Below, piece by piece: positions 7,638 through 48,521 of a DNA stretch of 64,000 bases. Each line of letters opens with the position of its first letter. Within the stretch, counting starts at the first letter, position 1. The position numbers and the translations under genes are program-made. The notes below the pieces were generated by a model that worked only from the letters and a program-made list of their open reading frames with translations, did no database searches and had not been told where the DNA came from. Source of the DNA: a virus (lineage: Duplodnaviria > Caudoviricetes); IMG/VR virus record IMGVR_UViG_3300020050_009209. One strand, 5' to 3'.

Positions 7638-9760
7638 TGCCATCGAATAAAGATCCTTCTGTAGTGCTTCCAGGTGCGGGTAGGCTTGCGGCTGGGCAAG
7701 TCAGCGCAAGCTCAATCTCCTTCCCCTTCGGCGGGGCTGGAGACCTCCTGAACCACCTTGCGGACCCTACAGACGCTCACATGAGTGGGGCCATTGGTAT
7801 CCCTGAGACCAACCCTGTCACGGGGCAGCCTCTGCTATCTAGCGTAAATGGTCCCTATGATGGGGAGTCCGTGATGGATGCCCTCACGGCCATTGCAGAC
7901 CTGTTCCCAACCCGTCCAGATCGAATTGGATTTGATGGGTCAATTGTAAACTCTGGCCTTACGAATTGGTCGAATGCTCTAAGTGCAAATGCGATCAAGG
8001 GTGGATGGACAGACGGAGCAAGTGGTATTGTGACCAAATACCTAACTCCAAACGGAAGTTTGGGGGCCCAGACCATTGGAGGTATGGTATATCCAGCCGA
8101 CCGAGGGGTTCTTGCGCTGTACAAGACGACAGCAGGTGACTTCTTCAATGCTGCTCAGACCACCCTTGAAATGGCTCTGTGGTTGGGGGTCAACCCTCCT
8201 CCTGCTGGCATCCCAGGGGCAGCGTTTGTAGAGGCCACGAGACCAACAGGTCAAACAGCGTATGTAGCTTCCGGGGCGGGTCTAGATAAGATCTCCTTGT
8301 CGGCTAGACTTCCATACTCTGCATCCTACCCAGGACTAGAGTATACGGCTTTTGGTACGAACTTCTCGACCTACCAACTAGGTAAGTACAGCTTCAGTAT
8401 CACTCTGATTGCTGGCGACAATGACAGCTATCTCCTAGTGCATTGGAAGCACACCTATGGGATATCCCTAGCTGCGATCCAACCTGCGAACTTGACCGCA
8501 CTGACCCTAGTCGCCACCAACTGCTTTTCAGCAGTGCCCTCGGATGGGGCTAACTACGACAATGCAAACCGTTCTTTGATTTTCTTGGATACGGCTTCTG
8601 GAAGCGGGCCTACCCCAACGACGATCACCTCAGCACCCGCTGGGACTGTAACGGTCACAAAGTACTCTGGAGTCAACCACTACAACTCCACAGGGCTTCA
8701 GTTCAACATTACAGCGAAGGCTACTGGCGTTTTCACGAACTCCTACTTCACGAATACCGTAGCCAGCGGTAGCGTTCCAGCGGCCTTCACGTCTGCTAGT
8801 ACTCCAGTACAAGTCGACATGTCAGCCTTTGGAGGTACAGTGCAGAACATTGCGCTGTACAACAACACGAAGATCGTGAATGACGCTGGAGGTGCTGTAT
8901 ACACTACGGTAGCTCCTCCTTCAAGCGGACATACGGCTAGATTTGAGGATGCAACTCAGGGGATTGGCGCTCCTGGCAATGGTATTCCATTCCCGTATGC
9001 AAGCCTTTCCATCAACTGGAATGGCACCTTTACAGGGTCCGTCCTCCAGAGTAGTACAGAGGTGTATCTGTACAATACGGTTGGGGGAACTCTAACCACT
9101 CAGACCTTAGAGCCTTTCAACGACGAAGGCTATAGGCACATTTCTACGTTTGCAGCTAACAACCCTGTAACCCCCATTCTCCCAGCGGGTGGAGATGTAT
9201 ACGTATCGGCTACAGCGCTAGCAGCGAATGATGGGAACCTTCAGGTACTCTCAGGTCGAATTGCTTACCCATCGATCGACTTTACTGTAGCTCCTGTAAA
9301 TCCAGTGACTGCTGGGTGTAACTATGCTGCGGTCCTTGCGGGAGATGCTGCAAACCATAAGCGTAGGTATGTCCGAGCGTTCAATACTGGCTTTGCTCGA
9401 AACACGGGTAAGCTGAGAATCACGGGATTGTCCTTCGCTTCTTTTGACACTGGAATTGCAGCTGTAGACCCAGCAGAGTTGACGGATCATCCTGGGGGCG
9501 CCATTGTCCAAATAAAGGTTCCTGGGGCTACCGGATGGCTTGACCTAGGTCGAGCAGACGGTCTACCAGACCTCGCTAAGGTTGCGGACTTCCGTGGTTG
9601 TCGCACAGGAATTGCTGGGGACGTGTACACTTTCGATACAGGTGGGTTCACGTCCGATAACGGCAGTGGTTTGTTTTTGCTCTTTGTTCGGGTGACTCTA
9701 ATCAAGAATGGCACGGGTCAGACTCTTAACGTTCAAGAGATTGAGTGGCTTCCACCGTGA
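7637..9760 (+). CDS. Virion structural protein
   Basis: 707 aa, G/T/A-rich; HLADPTDAH motif typical of fibre trimerisation segments; TGATG coupling to the upstream gene. Confidence 0.6.
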   Translation: MPSNKDPSVVLPGAGRLAAGQVSASSISFPFGGAGDLLNHLADPTDAHMSGAIGIPETNPVTGQPLLSSVNGPYDGESVMDALTAIADLFPTRPDRIGFDGSIVNSGLTNWSNALSANAIKGGWTDGASGIVTKYLTPNGSLGAQTIGGMVYPADRGVLALYKTTAGDFFNAAQTTLEMALWLGVNPPPAGIPGAAFVEATRPTGQTAYVASGAGLDKISLSARLPYSASYPGLEYTAFGTNFSTYQLGKYSFSITLIAGDNDSYLLVHWKHTYGISLAAIQPANLTALTLVATNCFSAVPSDGANYDNANRSLIFLDTASGSGPTPTTITSAPAGTVTVTKYSGVNHYNSTGLQFNITAKATGVFTNSYFTNTVASGSVPAAFTSASTPVQVDMSAFGGTVQNIALYNNTKIVNDAGGAVYTTVAPPSSGHTARFEDATQGIGAPGNGIPFPYASLSINWNGTFTGSVLQSSTEVYLYNTVGGTLTTQTLEPFNDEGYRHISTFAANNPVTPILPAGGDVYVSATALAANDGNLQVLSGRIAYPSIDFTVAPVNPVTAGCNYAAVLAGDAANHKRRYVRAFNTGFARNTGKLRITGLSFASFDTGIAAVDPAELTDHPGGAIVQIKVPGATGWLDLGRADGLPDLAKVADFRGCRTGIAGDVYTFDTGGFTSDNGSGLFLLFVRVTLIKNGTGQTLNVQEIEWLPP

Positions 9761-44788: not shown

Positions 44789-45408
44789 ACTCCTCAGGCA
44801 TTATCAGTCTAGATGACCTACTTGGGGGAGGGTACCCCAAGGGGATTACGTGTATTAGTGGGGTTAGAGGTTCTGGCAAAACTCAATTGCTACTAGCTGC
44901 GGCACAAGCTGCTTTAGTGAATGACGTACCAGTAGCCTTTTTCTCCTTTGACGCGGACCTGAGTTCAGATATACCCAAAGCTTCGGCTTTGGGTAAGGTC
45001 TATTCCAGGATTGTCACCTTAGATGAGGCAGTCAAGAAGCTAAGGGGTTCTGATCCGGAAACCTTGGTCCTTATGGATGGGGTTCACAAGGCTTTTGTGT
45101 ACAAGGGGCCTGATGCTGGTACGGTAGAGGACGGAAGTAGAGTCCTTAAGGCACGATGGTTTAACGACCAAGTGTCTACGTTGAGCAAGTTTTCTAGCGT
45201 CATCTTGACCTCGGAGGAGGTCCTACGCTATAAGGCTCTGACTCACGCTACTCGTACTGCCATTGAGCTAAAGATCAGTGGTAACTCAGATGTTACCGCA
45301 CACATAACCAAAAGTCTAGGGGGCCAGGTAGGAAGCTTACCCTTGGTGTTCAGAGGCCATGGGCAAGTGCTCCCAATGGAGATACGTAGCCGATTTGAAA
45401 GATTTTGA
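44785..45408 (+). CDS. Short RecA/RadB/KaiC-family P-loop ATPase
   Basis: SSGIISLDDLLGGGYPKG.T.ISGVRGSGKT, LVLMDG; ATG 44785 overlaps the upstream stop. Confidence 0.7.
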   Translation: MNSSGIISLDDLLGGGYPKGITCISGVRGSGKTQLLLAAAQAALVNDVPVAFFSFDADLSSDIPKASALGKVYSRIVTLDEAVKKLRGSDPETLVLMDGVHKAFVYKGPDAGTVEDGSRVLKARWFNDQVSTLSKFSSVILTSEEVLRYKALTHATRTAIELKISGNSDVTAHITKSLGGQVGSLPLVFRGHGQVLPMEIRSRFERF

Positions 45409-45418
45409 TGATCAAAGA

Positions 45419-45649
45419 GTGAATGACTTGAGTACAGCTGAGATTCAGGAGCTTGAACGACTGCGCCTACTGGCATTGCAGCATCCCTACGACCCTGAGC
45501 TTGCAAGCATACGATCAGGTAATGGCGGGGAGTACGCACCAGACATGCGAGGCTGGACCCCAGACGAGGATGCAGAGTTCAGGTACCATGCTGCTTTGGT
45601 CAAAGCAGCTCCTAGATTACTCGCTGAAGTGCTACGTAGAAGAAGGTAA
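45419..45649 (+). CDS. Small phage protein (Ead/Ea22-like tail motif)
   Basis: DAEF...AAPRLLAEV motif; start uncertain (GTG 45419). Confidence 0.45.
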   Translation: MNDLSTAEIQELERLRLLALQHPYDPELASIRSGNGGEYAPDMRGWTPDEDAEFRYHAALVKAAPRLLAEVLRRRR

Positions 45650-45653
45650 GCAG

Positions 45654-47363
45654 ATGCGTCAATATCTATCCCTAGTGGAACATGTGTTAGGTAGCGGAAC
45701 CCGCAAGGAAAACCGGACTGGCGTAGACACTCTCAGTACCTTTGGGTACTACTACGAGGTTGATTTAGCTCACGGGTTTCCCCTCCTCACGACCAAGCAG
45801 ATCTCTTGGAAAAACATAGTGGTCGAGTTGTTGTGGTTCCTTTCGGGACAGACTGACATCTCAATCCTCAAGCGTCATGGCTGTAAGTTCTGGGACGCTT
45901 GGGCTGACGAGAACGGTAAAGTTCCAAGTGCCTATGGGGCTTTTTGGGTTAATTTCCCACCAGCTCAGGAGCCCGAAGTTGTTACTCCACGCGAACCTTC
46001 CGGAAATGACTATGTTAAGCCTCATTTTGATGAGTTGACTGCTGAGTCGAACCATGAATGGTGTGGGAAATTCTTCGAGTCGAAAAACCACGGCTCGTTC
46101 AAGATCATTCGTCAGGTAGGTGTAGATACCGAAGGTCGTAGACTGTTCGATATTCAGTTTACAACTACGGGCTATGTTAAGAAGCGGGTGCGCCGTGATG
46201 TAATTCAAAATGGGGAGGTTCGGGATAGATACTTCGCCTCTATCCACGGAGTGGGGTACTATGGAGAGCGGACAACCAAAACTGAGATAGACGCGGATCT
46301 CCTCAAGGTTTGGCAGCACATGATGGACCGTTGCTATAACCCTGACTGTAAAGAGTACCCATGGTATGGCTTGAGAGGCGTTACAGTGTGCAACAGATGG
46401 CACAACTTCGCTAACTTCCACGCAGACTGCTACACGCTACCAAACTGGGTCAACAAGAGGGACAATCCAAAGCAGTACGCCCTAGATAAGGATTTTTTCA
46501 GCGCCCGTTGTTACTCTCCTACTACCTGTGTATGGCTTTCTCACCAGGATAATCGACTTTACGCTCACGCCAAGGCAGTTAAGGTCGAATACCCTGATGG
46601 TGGGGTTCGAGTTGTCTTGTCAGCATCTGAGGCTGCTGCTGCCTCGAAACTCAAGAAGAGTCGTGTACTTACCTGCATCCAAAATGGAGAGGATTACCAC
46701 AAGTATAGGTTCTCATGGGCCTCTGGGGTGTACCGTAGACCACTCCCGAATAACCAGATCCGATGGGTTATCGACGAGCTAAACCGAAACCCCATGTCTC
46801 GACGTATGGTTGTTTCTGCTTGGGCTCCAGGGAACGCTCAGACCAGTAAGCTCCCACCCTGCCACAGCATCTTCATGCTTAATGTGCAGAATGCGAACCA
46901 GATTGAGTTCCACCCGCCAAAAGAGAATGATGATGGTCGAACTCTAGTACCTACCATCATGGGTACTAAACAGAGGGTATGCCTTCACCTCACCCAGAGG
47001 TCCGCTGACGTCCTTTTGGGCGTACCCTATAACATTGCAAGCTACGCACTGCTTCTCAGTTTGTTCTCTCGCTTCTCTGGGATTGAGCCTGGTATCTTTG
47101 GGCACACCTTGGTGGACGCGCATGTTTACACAGCTAAACCAGATGGTTCGATGGCCGAGTACGACCACGTTCCTGTTTTGAAGGAGCAGTTGACTCGGAT
47201 GCCAAAAGCCCTTCCGAGGCTTATCATCTCGAACCAGATCAAGACCCTAGCTGACGTAGAGGCTCTCATGCACCCCTCCGTAACAACAGAGGAGGTCATG
47301 CGTCACTTCGTGCTTGAGGGCTATGATCCTTGGCCAGCCCTATCTGGAAAGGTTGCGGTATGA
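45654..47363 (+). CDS. thyA: Thymidylate synthase carrying an in-frame HNH endonuclease insertion
   Basis: MRQYL...RTGV, FPLLTTK, ELLWFL, SRRMVVSAW, LPPCH, QRSAD..LGVPYN, DAHVY; true start ATG 45654. Confidence 0.92.
   Translation: MRQYLSLVEHVLGSGTRKENRTGVDTLSTFGYYYEVDLAHGFPLLTTKQISWKNIVVELLWFLSGQTDISILKRHGCKFWDAWADENGKVPSAYGAFWVNFPPAQEPEVVTPREPSGNDYVKPHFDELTAESNHEWCGKFFESKNHGSFKIIRQVGVDTEGRRLFDIQFTTTGYVKKRVRRDVIQNGEVRDRYFASIHGVGYYGERTTKTEIDADLLKVWQHMMDRCYNPDCKEYPWYGLRGVTVCNRWHNFANFHADCYTLPNWVNKRDNPKQYALDKDFFSARCYSPTTCVWLSHQDNRLYAHAKAVKVEYPDGGVRVVLSASEAAAASKLKKSRVLTCIQNGEDYHKYRFSWASGVYRRPLPNNQIRWVIDELNRNPMSRRMVVSAWAPGNAQTSKLPPCHSIFMLNVQNANQIEFHPPKENDDGRTLVPTIMGTKQRVCLHLTQRSADVLLGVPYNIASYALLLSLFSRFSGIEPGIFGHTLVDAHVYTAKPDGSMAEYDHVPVLKEQLTRMPKALPRLIISNQIKTLADVEALMHPSVTTEEVMRHFVLEGYDPWPALSGKVAV
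45960..46748 (+). mobile_element. HNH-type homing endonuclease (about 263 aa) inserted in-frame in thyA
   Basis: QFTTTGY...GEVRD...GVGYYG, WQHMMDRCY...YPWYG.RGVTVC.RW.NF..F..D, LDKD...YSP.TC.W; HTH-like tail. Replaces the short loop between YGxxW..P and xQI. Confidence 0.8.
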
Positions 47364-47941
47364 CTCAACTTGAATTTCTTCTATCTGAGGTAGCTTGGCT
47401 TACAAGAGAGCTTGAGTACCTACCAGACTCCGCACCTATTACCAAAGCTTCAACGAGATCACGTCTAGCTGAGGTGGGAAGGCAGTTAGAGTTTGAACGT
47501 TCGCGTAAAGCTACAACAGTGAATGGTAGATTTGTGTCTGGTTCGTGCCTAGGTGAAATTTGCTCTATCTGCATAAAGCACCTTGGCGTTCGCGTTACAG
47601 CCACTTGCAAGGTCGGAGAAGAGATAGCGGTCGATGACCCTAACCTACCTAGGCACAACCTAACTGCGTATCTCTGTTCAAGGCACTTCGATGAGATCTT
47701 TAGTCCTCCAACTGGAGTAGCTAGTGTTGGACAACAGGGTATTGAACGACTTCAGGTGACTCTAGCTCAGACAGAGGGTGAGCTAGAGACGGCACGTCTT
47801 CGTATTCATGAAGCCACTCAAAAGCTTGTTGCTGAGTTTGGAGCAGAAAGCTCAGCCAGTCTAGAAGAAGTGGTCGAAAAGGCTGTTGTCGCAATTCGCA
47901 CCCCCCTGCTGATTGGGGGTGGGTACGGATATGAAACCTAA
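47360..47941 (+). CDS. Hypothetical protein with CxxC and coiled coil
   Basis: ATG 47360 overlaps the thyA stop; CSIC...LCSRH. Confidence 0.5.
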   Translation: MTQLEFLLSEVAWLTRELEYLPDSAPITKASTRSRLAEVGRQLEFERSRKATTVNGRFVSGSCLGEICSICIKHLGVRVTATCKVGEEIAVDDPNLPRHNLTAYLCSRHFDEIFSPPTGVASVGQQGIERLQVTLAQTEGELETARLRIHEATQKLVAEFGAESSASLEEVVEKAVVAIRTPLLIGGGYGYET

Positions 47942-48521
47942 GCTCATTGTAGCTACCAGTGCGAACGGGGTAATTGGGATCGACGGTAAGATCCCATGGC
48001 GCAAACCAGAGGACTTGAAGCGATTCAAGAGAGTCACTCTTGGTGGCGTACTCATCATGGGTAGGCGGACTTGGGACTCGATTGGGAGGGCGCTACCGGG
48101 GCGTAGGACGTTTGTTCTGAGTTCCAACCCCGACCTAAAGCTGGAGGGAGCTGAGGTCTTCTCAAGCCTTCCTGACGCTTTAGCGGCAGCAGGAGAGACC
48201 GACCAGGTCTGGATTGCAGGTGGGTCTTCTGTTTATGCGGAAGGTCTTCAGTACTGCGATGAGCTAGACATCACGGTTGTGAATTCTGAAATTGCCGAGG
48301 GACCAGGCGTAGTAACTATCCCATGGTTTGCAGCCAACCGTAACGAAAAGTTAGGTATCCCAATTTGGATTTCTGCCAATAGCAAGTGTGTGAGTCCAAT
48401 GATAGGGGACCCAATGGTGGGGGACTTCCACCTAACCAATCAAGAAACTAACCCAGAGGACGGCTCTCTTGTCCACTGCGAGTACACTCGAATAACTTTT
48501 ATCCACTACAGCACTAGGTAA
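47931..48521 (+). CDS. folA: Dihydrofolate reductase
   Basis: LIVA...NGVIG..GKIPW..PEDLKRFK..T...IMGRRTWDSIGRALPGR, IAGG..VY; ATG 47931. Confidence 0.92.
   Translation: MKPKLIVATSANGVIGIDGKIPWRKPEDLKRFKRVTLGGVLIMGRRTWDSIGRALPGRRTFVLSSNPDLKLEGAEVFSSLPDALAAAGETDQVWIAGGSSVYAEGLQYCDELDITVVNSEIAEGPGVVTIPWFAANRNEKLGIPIWISANSKCVSPMIGDPMVGDFHLTNQETNPEDGSLVHCEYTRITFIHYSTR

Follow-up and report, generated by a model that had tools for sequence, protein, structure and literature searches.

A homing-endonuclease gene that probably resides, without splicing, in frame inside the thymidylate synthase gene of a jumbo phage

We have analysed a window of 64,000 nucleotides (the whole stretch of DNA under study, whose numbering is used below) from the virus record IMGVR_UViG_3300020050_009209 of IMG/VR and, in particular, its thymidylate synthase gene, thyA, the reading frame of which contains a 263-codon insert resembling HNH-type homing endonucleases. 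The complete record comprises 379,936 bp with direct terminal repeats, and its source is therefore a jumbo phage. The insert had been recognised in a first-pass annotation, made by a model from the letters of the window and a list of its open reading frames. The features of the locus, as we now define them, are as follows.

45654..47363, + strand: thyA open reading frame, 569 residues (protein P0001), from its stop-free translation and Pfam
45654..45959, + strand: ThyA N-terminal part, residues 1-102, ending in YGAFWVNFP, from profile positions 2-105 and alignment with insert-free ThyA
45960..46748, + strand: in-frame insert, residues 103-365, 263 codons, from its absence in close ThyA relatives, its match to phrog_2081, an AlphaFold2 model and the ratio of non-synonymous to synonymous substitution rates (dN/dS)
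45960..46046, + strand: N-terminal linker of the insert, residues 103-131, with a V-x-PR motif, found in ThyA-embedded copies and not in free-standing homologues
46047..46217, + strand: SH3/Tudor-like beta-barrel, residues ~132-188, from model strands and VIA-align Z scores of 4.3-6.6
46284..46568, + strand: helical region and beta-beta-alpha-metal (HNH-type) core, residues 211-305, from the model, invariant columns, Foldseek and hhalign
46485..46553, + strand: putative active-site stretch, D278-K279-D280 ... N300, from (near-)invariant columns and spacing
46569..46724, + strand: helix-turn-helix DNA-binding module of the I-HmuI/I-TevI type, residues 306-357, from a family profile and VIA-align
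46725..46748, + strand: C-terminal linker of the insert, residues 358-365, with the Y-R-x-x-L-P motif of embedded copies, from comparison of fused proteins
46749..47363, + strand: ThyA C-terminal part, residues 366-569, with SRR, PCH, QRSxD, N460 and DxHxY, from Pfam and alignment
47913..48521, + strand: dihydrofolate reductase (DHFR)-like gene, 3' of thyA, from its open reading frame, a tblastx match and a PF00186 gene in the same place in the syntenic relatives L008, L013 and L014

By several criteria the interrupted gene is an ordinary thyA. P0001 scored 263.8 bits with PF00303 (cut-off 24.3), the match being split into stretches on either side of the insert, and Thymidylat_synt was the sole Pfam family matched at E<=1; the protein also matched phrog_160 (E 7.5e-73). 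A Pfam scan of the whole phage genome found PF00303 at this locus alone and did not find ThyX (PF02511). The first-pass annotation had described the catalytic motifs as intact, and we observed the complete residue set in P0001: R21, E58, W80, W83, Y94, R383-R384, C403-H404, Q448-R449-S450-D452, N460 and D488-H490-Y492, which we take to be equivalent to R21, E58, W80, W83, Y94, R126-R127, C146-H147, Q165-R166-S167-D169, N177 and D205-H207-Y209 of the E. coli enzyme. In a full-length AlphaFold2 model of P0001 (mean predicted local distance difference test score, pLDDT, of 81), the ThyA portion superimposed on E. coli ThyA with a target-normalised template-modelling score of up to 0.88, so that the enzyme fold around the insert is predicted to be intact. 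Since this is the sole ThyA of a phage lacking a recognisable ThyX, with catalytic residues kept and a ThyA fold that is modelled intact, the phage thyA is probably in use.

Two further observations concern the limits and the internal variability of the gene. The thyA frame is open for 67 codons further upstream (45453-45653), to a TTG, overlapping the preceding open reading frame at 45359-45649, and the called sequence of a close relative, P0002, is longer by 22 residues at its N-terminus; the ATG at 45654 (MRQYL) suits ThyA homologues. There is also a second, shorter ThyA insertion at 46890-47010 (residues ~413-441), in which about 25 residues, NANQIEFHPPKENDDGRTLVPTIMGTKQ, lie between the PCH strand and QRSxD. 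No other part of the gene has diverged as far from the closest relative (63% nucleotide identity, with indels), and among relatives in general the segment is hypervariable.

The position of the large insert could be fixed by comparison with uninterrupted homologues. It occupies the loop after YGxxW, with YGAFWVNFP ending at residue 102 and NNQIRW starting at residue 366, and insert-free metagenomic ThyA relatives (67-78% identity, 293-311 residues) have 6-14 residues at this place; the first-pass estimate of about 263 codons between these two motifs thus corresponds exactly to residues 103-365, or 45960-46748. One insert-free relative, P0164, is encoded on a 39-kb contig that is syntenic with the window (AAA ATPase ... 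thyA ... DHFR), and at the level of DNA its FP-TLEG-PNDQI aligns with FP-[263 codons]-NNQI in the window.

We examined the insert by profile and structural comparisons, and these predict a well-folded module of nuclease type, composed of three parts and attached to ThyA through two short linkers. Residues 138-363 of P0001 matched phrog_2081, 'HNH endonuclease', with E 6e-47, and four further PHROGs families annotated 'HNH/restriction endonuclease' also matched the insert; no Pfam model matched it at E<=1. An AlphaFold2 model of the insert by itself, computed from an alignment of 141 homologues, had a pLDDT of 94.9 and a predicted template-modelling score of 0.88. Its barrel domain resembled VapX, CarD, KOW and Tudor folds and the N-terminal domain of Hpy99I, itself a beta-beta-alpha-metal enzyme. 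In the core, the model places strands at 275-278 and 293-296 and a helix at 297-305, the conserved elements being W-x2-M-x2-RCYN, YG, W-x2-F-x-NF, LDKD and N300, and VIA-align gave Z 4.1 for the core against PacI. The top and sole significant Foldseek match of the whole insert was the intron endonuclease I-HmuI (1u3e, probability 0.98); the helix-turn-helix aligned with residues 111-174 of the same structure at Z 8.2 and with the DNA-binding domain of I-TevI (1t2t) at Z 5.8, and the family profile of the insert matched residues 108-170 of I-HmuI by sequence, with E 4e-6. A phmmer search of the insert against PDB sequences returned chance matches only (mS65, E 1.4), and no GenBank phage matched 44000-49000 by megablast. 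The first-pass annotation had likened the insert to an HNH endonuclease over nearly its whole length. This is borne out for residues ~135-357, though the first ~35 and last ~8 residues are linkers that are absent from free-standing homologues; likewise, the HNH label needs the proviso that the insert represents a variant without the catalytic histidine.

This variant is apparent from the conserved columns of the core. D278, D280 and N300 are invariant among 11 fused proteins, and among the 141 fused and free-standing proteins D278 and D280 are each at least 90% conserved and K279 is near-invariant. The insert thus has a beta-beta-alpha core with an Asp/Asn metal-binding pair, where the equivalence of the residues is judged from spacing. 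In I-HmuI the corresponding residues are presumably D74-H75...W90...N96, with a spacing equal to that of D...W...N in the insert; this equivalence is not taken from a tool alignment, residues 108-170 being the only part of the I-HmuI sequence confirmed by a tool. By spacing, the general-base histidine position, at the end of strand 1, is occupied by Lys279, and the insert would then have kept both metal ligands and exchanged the general-base histidine for lysine. The near-invariance of K279 in free-standing and embedded members alike argues for function rather than decay. When the family alignment was compared with gp59 of phage ICP1 by hhalign, the match had a probability of 99.5% and E 4.4e-23 over 159 columns, and gp59 likewise has L-D-K-D. 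The IPA-HNH homing endonuclease genes, of which ICP1 gp59 is a founder, were defined by Barth, Dunham & Seed 2023 (PMC10448857), and on this profile comparison the nuclease part of the insert belongs to their family. An AP2 domain was not found in the insert (Pfam, E<=1), which has the helix-turn-helix in its place.

A distant relative of the insert core (E ~2e-5) is encoded elsewhere in the phage genome, at ~184,763-185,818 of the record (+ strand; L006 1177-2232). This protein of 351 residues has three tandem copies of a motif that is common in phages, Y-x-x-YGGRGI ... W ... F ... GPRPS ... HSLDR-x-DN ... Y-x-PGNVRWAT ... EQ ... NRR, and looks like a triple-repeat HNH-like protein.

Homing endonucleases within genes usually accompany self-splicing introns or inteins, since a gene would be expected to lose its function through an insertion that is not spliced out. 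We have looked for elements that might remove the insert. The absence of intein hallmarks, of stop codons and of a group I core had all been remarked upon in the first-pass annotation, and each of these observations withstood examination. The first residue of the insert is Pro103 and the last are Leu364-Pro365, followed by Asn366-Asn367-Gln368; neither junction has a Cys/Ser/Thr nucleophile, none is conserved in homologues, and the junction residues of homologues are not conserved as Cys/Ser/Thr/Asn. Hint, intein and LAGLIDADG families were not matched in P0001 by Pfam at E<=1, nor does a Hint fold appear among the Foldseek and VIA-align rows for the insert. Because the three modules and two linkers fill all 263 residues, there is also no room for a splicing domain of ~130 residues. 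All 263 insert codons are open, and an Rfam cmscan of 45000-48000 at E<=10 revealed no group I or group II intron, the only rows being at chance level and far below gathering scores (RMST_3 and a 15-nucleotide ycf3 fragment on the other strand).

Comparison with the closest relative, P0002 (encoded on contig L013), which bears the insert and is 96% identical in it, showed how the inserted codons evolve. The two inserts differ by 42 synonymous and 11 non-synonymous changes, for a dN/dS of 0.061, as compared to 0.104 for the ThyA parts, and every sub-region of the insert, including the linkers, gave values of 0.03-0.11 in the ThyA frame. Purifying selection on this frame is strong throughout the insert, and protein homology extends to both junctions even at 30-40% identity. 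We also compared 45400-47600 with four sequencing runs, whose cover of this region was patchy. DNA contigs crossed both insert junctions at 100% identity, none spanning the full gene, and a 151-nucleotide contig from a wastewater RNA library, ~97% identical, crossed the 3' junction in unspliced form (46701-46851). A joined, insert-less contig was not found in the four runs, within the limits of that patchy cover.

An exhaustive search with the insert retrieved 31,999 representative proteins at E<1e-3 (~32,000 clusters at 50% identity), and we studied 160 proteins, namely the 150 top representative matches together with fused matches found earlier. The order ThyA-N / insert / ThyA-C was present in 75 of the 160, and inspection of the flanks YGxxW and xDQ...SRR placed the insert in the same loop in most fused proteins. 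Another 77 of the 160 are free-standing, with ~190-720 residues (mostly ~220-480), some with repeated modules; these align only from about insert residue 35-45 on. The linker motifs V-x-PR (start) and Y-R-x-x-L-P (end) are common to the embedded copies and are not found in the free-standing proteins. Cultured phages carrying the ThyA chimera include Bacillus phage 015DV002, Klebsiella phages KP13-7 and phiKp_21, and E. coli phages UE-S1 and ph0011, where its annotation says no more than thymidylate synthase or hypothetical protein. As for the free-standing relatives, 1,138 phage records contain them, often at several loci of one genome; those of Bacillus phage Chotacabras and Salmonella phage SPLA3 immediately precede a thyA that is uninterrupted. 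The generalisation from which the first-pass annotation had started, that endonucleases of td/thyA genes normally travel in introns or inteins, is in this respect too narrow. RB49-like coliphages (e.g. JSE) have a Td protein of 407 residues with a ~120-residue remnant in the same loop, in which the barrel and the helix-turn-helix are lost and LDSD replaces LDKD; this remnant is a decayed insert.

Two observations in Bacillus phages indicate a broader range of thyA interruptions. Gp41 of phage Kioshi (L015 2381-4027), 548 residues and annotated as thymidylate synthase, has the same insert in the same loop of a ThyA-like part that is divergent, with no DRTG motif and with QECAW in place of PCH; paralogues of ThyA, for instance a pyrimidine hydroxymethylase-like enzyme, may thus be hosts of the element as well. 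In phages KKP_4047/4048/4050, vB_BspH_TimeGriffin and vB_BceH_LY2, thyA matches were in 3-4 pieces over 1.2-3 kb, with two thymidylate synthase coding sequences or an 'intron-associated endonuclease' annotation. These interruptions are probably introns, and the thyA of Herelleviridae would therefore be a hot-spot for mobile elements of several kinds.

Evidence for movement came from homologues with and without the insert, a comparison that had been proposed in the first-pass annotation and that confirmed a presence/absence polymorphism at one site. Bacillus phage 015DV002 bears the insert, and 015DV004, 000TH008 and 000TH009, with ThyA parts 91.6-92.5% identical to its own, do not. When 015DV002 and 015DV004 were compared over 4.6 kb of DNA, identity was 93-100% (mostly 98-100%) to either side of the insert, with the sole exception of ~150 nucleotides immediately 3' of it (2684-2830 of L001, compared with L011), which are 65% identical; beyond this stretch, identity returns to 100%. 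A 65% stretch amid near-identity points to gene conversion from a divergent donor, by which the insert was acquired together with a short co-converted flank, and the end of this flank, which lies shortly beyond the active-site Pro-Cys-His codons, suggests, rather than shows, a cut site in that conserved stretch. It should be noted that this tract was seen in Bacillus phage relatives and not in the lineage of the window itself. On a tree of ThyA columns only, with loop columns removed, the fused state changed at least 9 times, at least 5 of these changes being forced by well-supported branches, and the ThyA of the window grouped with the insert-free P0164 and P0165 (support 98; 78% identity). 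In comparison with L013, which has the insert as well, thyA of the window is 80-90% identical (63% in the second variable loop) between flanking genes that are 93-98% identical, and the insert and the first 90 nucleotides after it are more alike (~86-99%). Thus thyA is a local hot-spot of divergence, and the mosaic profile of identity suggests recombination.

From these observations we consider it likely that the insert is a splicing-free homing-endonuclease gene living in frame inside thyA. The insert would be transcribed and translated as part of ThyA, from the thyA promoter and ribosome-binding site, to give a protein in which a nuclease-type appendage of three modules is held on two linkers in a variable loop of the ThyA core, away from the catalytic residues. 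During co-infection, the nuclease module would nick or cut an insert-free thyA near the SRR...PCH stretch just 3' of the insertion point, and repair from the insert-bearing allele would copy in the insert with a short 3' flank. For the copy in this phage we infer nuclease activity, the target site, retained ThyA activity and continued mobility. The first-pass annotation had proposed a homing element without splicing, tolerated in a surface loop, and this proposal gains support from the lack of intein and intron features, the predicted folds of the insert and of the ThyA around it, the purifying selection, the recurrence of insertions in the same loop, the presence/absence polymorphism and the co-conversion tract; the bifunctional ThyA-nuclease it envisaged would be the product of such a gene.

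Several points weigh against this explanation. The substitution of lysine at the histidine-equivalent position leaves the chemistry of a nuclease unproven, and homing of the ICP1 genes has not been experimentally verified, no nuclease of the family having been assayed (PMC10448857). The RNA-library contig is weak evidence for retention of the insert in the mature product, since carry-over of DNA is possible. With regard to mobility, the approximately unbiased (AU) test did not reject the grouping of all six ThyAs with the insert, within the clade of the window, as one clade (p = 0.124), and we found no near-identical insert-free allele of this phage; with a single origin unrejected, no such allele and no joined contig, current mobility in the lineage of the window is not demonstrated. 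Finally, the insert is more constrained than ThyA itself, as would also be expected of a domain kept for a host function.

The latter points lead to the alternative that a former homing endonuclease has been domesticated as a fixed, immobile DNA-binding or nuclease module useful to the phage, which might tether ThyA to DNA or to the replication factory, regulate thyA, or attack the thyA of competitors in co-infection. We regard this as unlikely, while recognising what speaks for it: not only the dN/dS of the insert, below that of its ThyA flanks, and the unrejected monophyly in the clade of the window, but also the near-invariance of D-K-D...N and of DNA-binding residues in the 141 proteins, the conserved linker motifs, which suggest adaptation to the ThyA scaffold, and the precedent of an intron endonuclease that serves phage competition (PMC11620839). 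However, the sporadic distribution of the insert and the 015DV002/015DV004 co-conversion tract point to recent gain by gene conversion and not to old vertical inheritance. Moreover, close relatives manage without the insert, the RB49-like remnants show that it is dispensable once fixed, and the occurrence of several free-standing copies per genome is like that of a selfish gene.

It is also conceivable that the insert is removed by a hidden process, such as a new kind of intein, an in-frame open intron, translational bypass, or proteolysis with re-association of the ThyA halves. Missing hallmarks of the known kind do not prove that splicing is absent, and the terminal motifs V-x-PR and Y-R-x-x-L-P could in principle be processing signals. 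An unrecognised splicing mechanism had been offered in the first-pass annotation as well, but found no support in our searches, which detected no Hint domain, junction nucleophile or Rfam intron; the modules and linkers leave no space for a splicing domain, codon-level constraint in the ThyA frame extends through all sub-regions, linkers included, and the RNA-library contig, for what it is worth, crosses the 3' junction. On these grounds we consider removal very improbable. Still less probable, in our judgement, is that the insertion killed the enzyme and left the phage dependent on the thymidylate synthase of its host. Phage thyA is often dispensable, but the catalytic residues are all intact, the ThyA parts have a dN/dS of 0.10, the frame has been kept open across ~75 divergent fused clusters, the ThyA fold is predicted to be intact, and the gene lies in a conserved thyA-DHFR cluster.

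If the insert is indeed a resident homing-endonuclease gene that does without splicing, tolerance in a surface loop can stand in for splicing. The element would be a homing endonuclease gene with a new mode of residence in its host gene. Somewhat more tentatively, though on balance we favour it, we would describe this mode as a third general one, next to introns and inteins: a 'parasitic domain' that is always translated, with adapted linkers in a permissive loop, enzyme and nuclease forming one polypeptide and lysine taking the place of the HNH histidine, of which the ThyA-embedded lineage, with its ~75 divergent clusters, would be the largest known example. A natural and recurrent case of a domain inserted into a well-studied enzyme would then be at hand in cultured phages, among them the relic-bearing RB49-like coliphages, and phages would hold in great abundance an uncharacterised D-K-D...N catalytic variant of the beta-beta-alpha-metal nucleases. 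For annotation, these 'thymidylate synthases' of 520-590 residues are chimeras, and the label 'HNH endonuclease' on free-standing relatives masks the missing histidine. In the literature on in-frame endonucleases within thymidylate synthase we found no paper describing a ThyA chimera; an actinophage intein preprint deals with ThyX inteins, and the report on the IPA-HNH genes of ICP1 mentions thymidylate synthase 0 times (PMC10448857).

The surroundings of the gene are those of a thyA-frd nucleotide-metabolism cluster, made up of thyA and the DHFR-like gene. Between these two lies an open reading frame of 203 residues with Cys-rich motifs (47330-47941), and the spacer is variable, since relatives carry different small genes there (a Bac_DNA_binding gene in L008 and L014). 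On L014, the contig of a relative (JGI 3300049491) that also has a fused thyA, we observed a ClpX-like AAA gene with Hom_end_hint and LAGLIDADG Pfam matches (8204-9045). These matches indicate a canonical intein, and this phage group therefore hosts ordinary inteins too.

Comparison with known systems shows which features of the ThyA insert have precedents. In Aeromonas phage Aeh1, nrdA is split by mobE, and LAGLIDADG genes reportedly lie in frame in fungal mitochondrial rps3 with neither intron nor intein, a case that differs from ours in its nuclease family, its host and its genetic system, which is that of an organelle. The mobE-type genes of T4 are like the insert in being HNH-type genes located in or beside genes of nucleotide metabolism, with co-conversion of flanks and no splicing element (PMC2790892). 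Mob genes of the T-even type are, however, separate open reading frames with their own starts and stops, whereas the insert forms one continuous polypeptide with its host protein.

With the IPA-HNH proteins of ICP1 (gp59, gp115-116 and gp209; PMC10448857) the insert shares an SH3-like region, the W-x2-M-x2-RCY helix, L-D-K-D ... N, a divergence too great for Pfam HNH models, and a location within or next to genes that are essential to phages. In ICP1 these genes stand alone or are associated with introns, and they encode a C-terminal AP2 domain (PMC10448857); in contrast, the insert lies in frame in ThyA, with a helix-turn-helix of the I-HmuI type and extra linkers. I-HmuI, from the DNA polymerase intron of Bacillus phage SPO1 (PDB 1U3E), is the best structural match of the whole insert and the nearest solved structure. 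Both are extended multi-module proteins with a beta-beta-alpha-metal core and homologous C-terminal DNA-binding modules, but the gene of I-HmuI lies within a self-splicing group I intron, and the enzyme has the canonical catalytic histidine, where the insert, by what we take to be equivalent spacing, has lysine; the N-terminal domain of the insert is an SH3-like barrel.

Among published insertions that are in frame, unspliced and homing-like, the ShiLan domain of mycobacteriophage DNA methylases comes closest (Arsenault, Gosselin & Gogarten 2025, PMC11855218). Like the ThyA insert, it is open in the frame of its host gene, shows no detectable intein or intron features and is distributed sporadically, as homing elements are; its predicted fate is retention in the host protein as a loop-out (PMC11855218). 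The two differ in what the host frame encodes. The HNH protein of ShiLan is specified in another reading frame, and its in-frame product is a hairpin-like loop only (PMC11855218), whereas in the case described here the homology to nucleases lies in the ThyA frame itself and the predicted product is a folded module of nuclease type. They differ also in the gene that is occupied, which is a dispensable methylase for ShiLan and thymidylate synthase for the insert.

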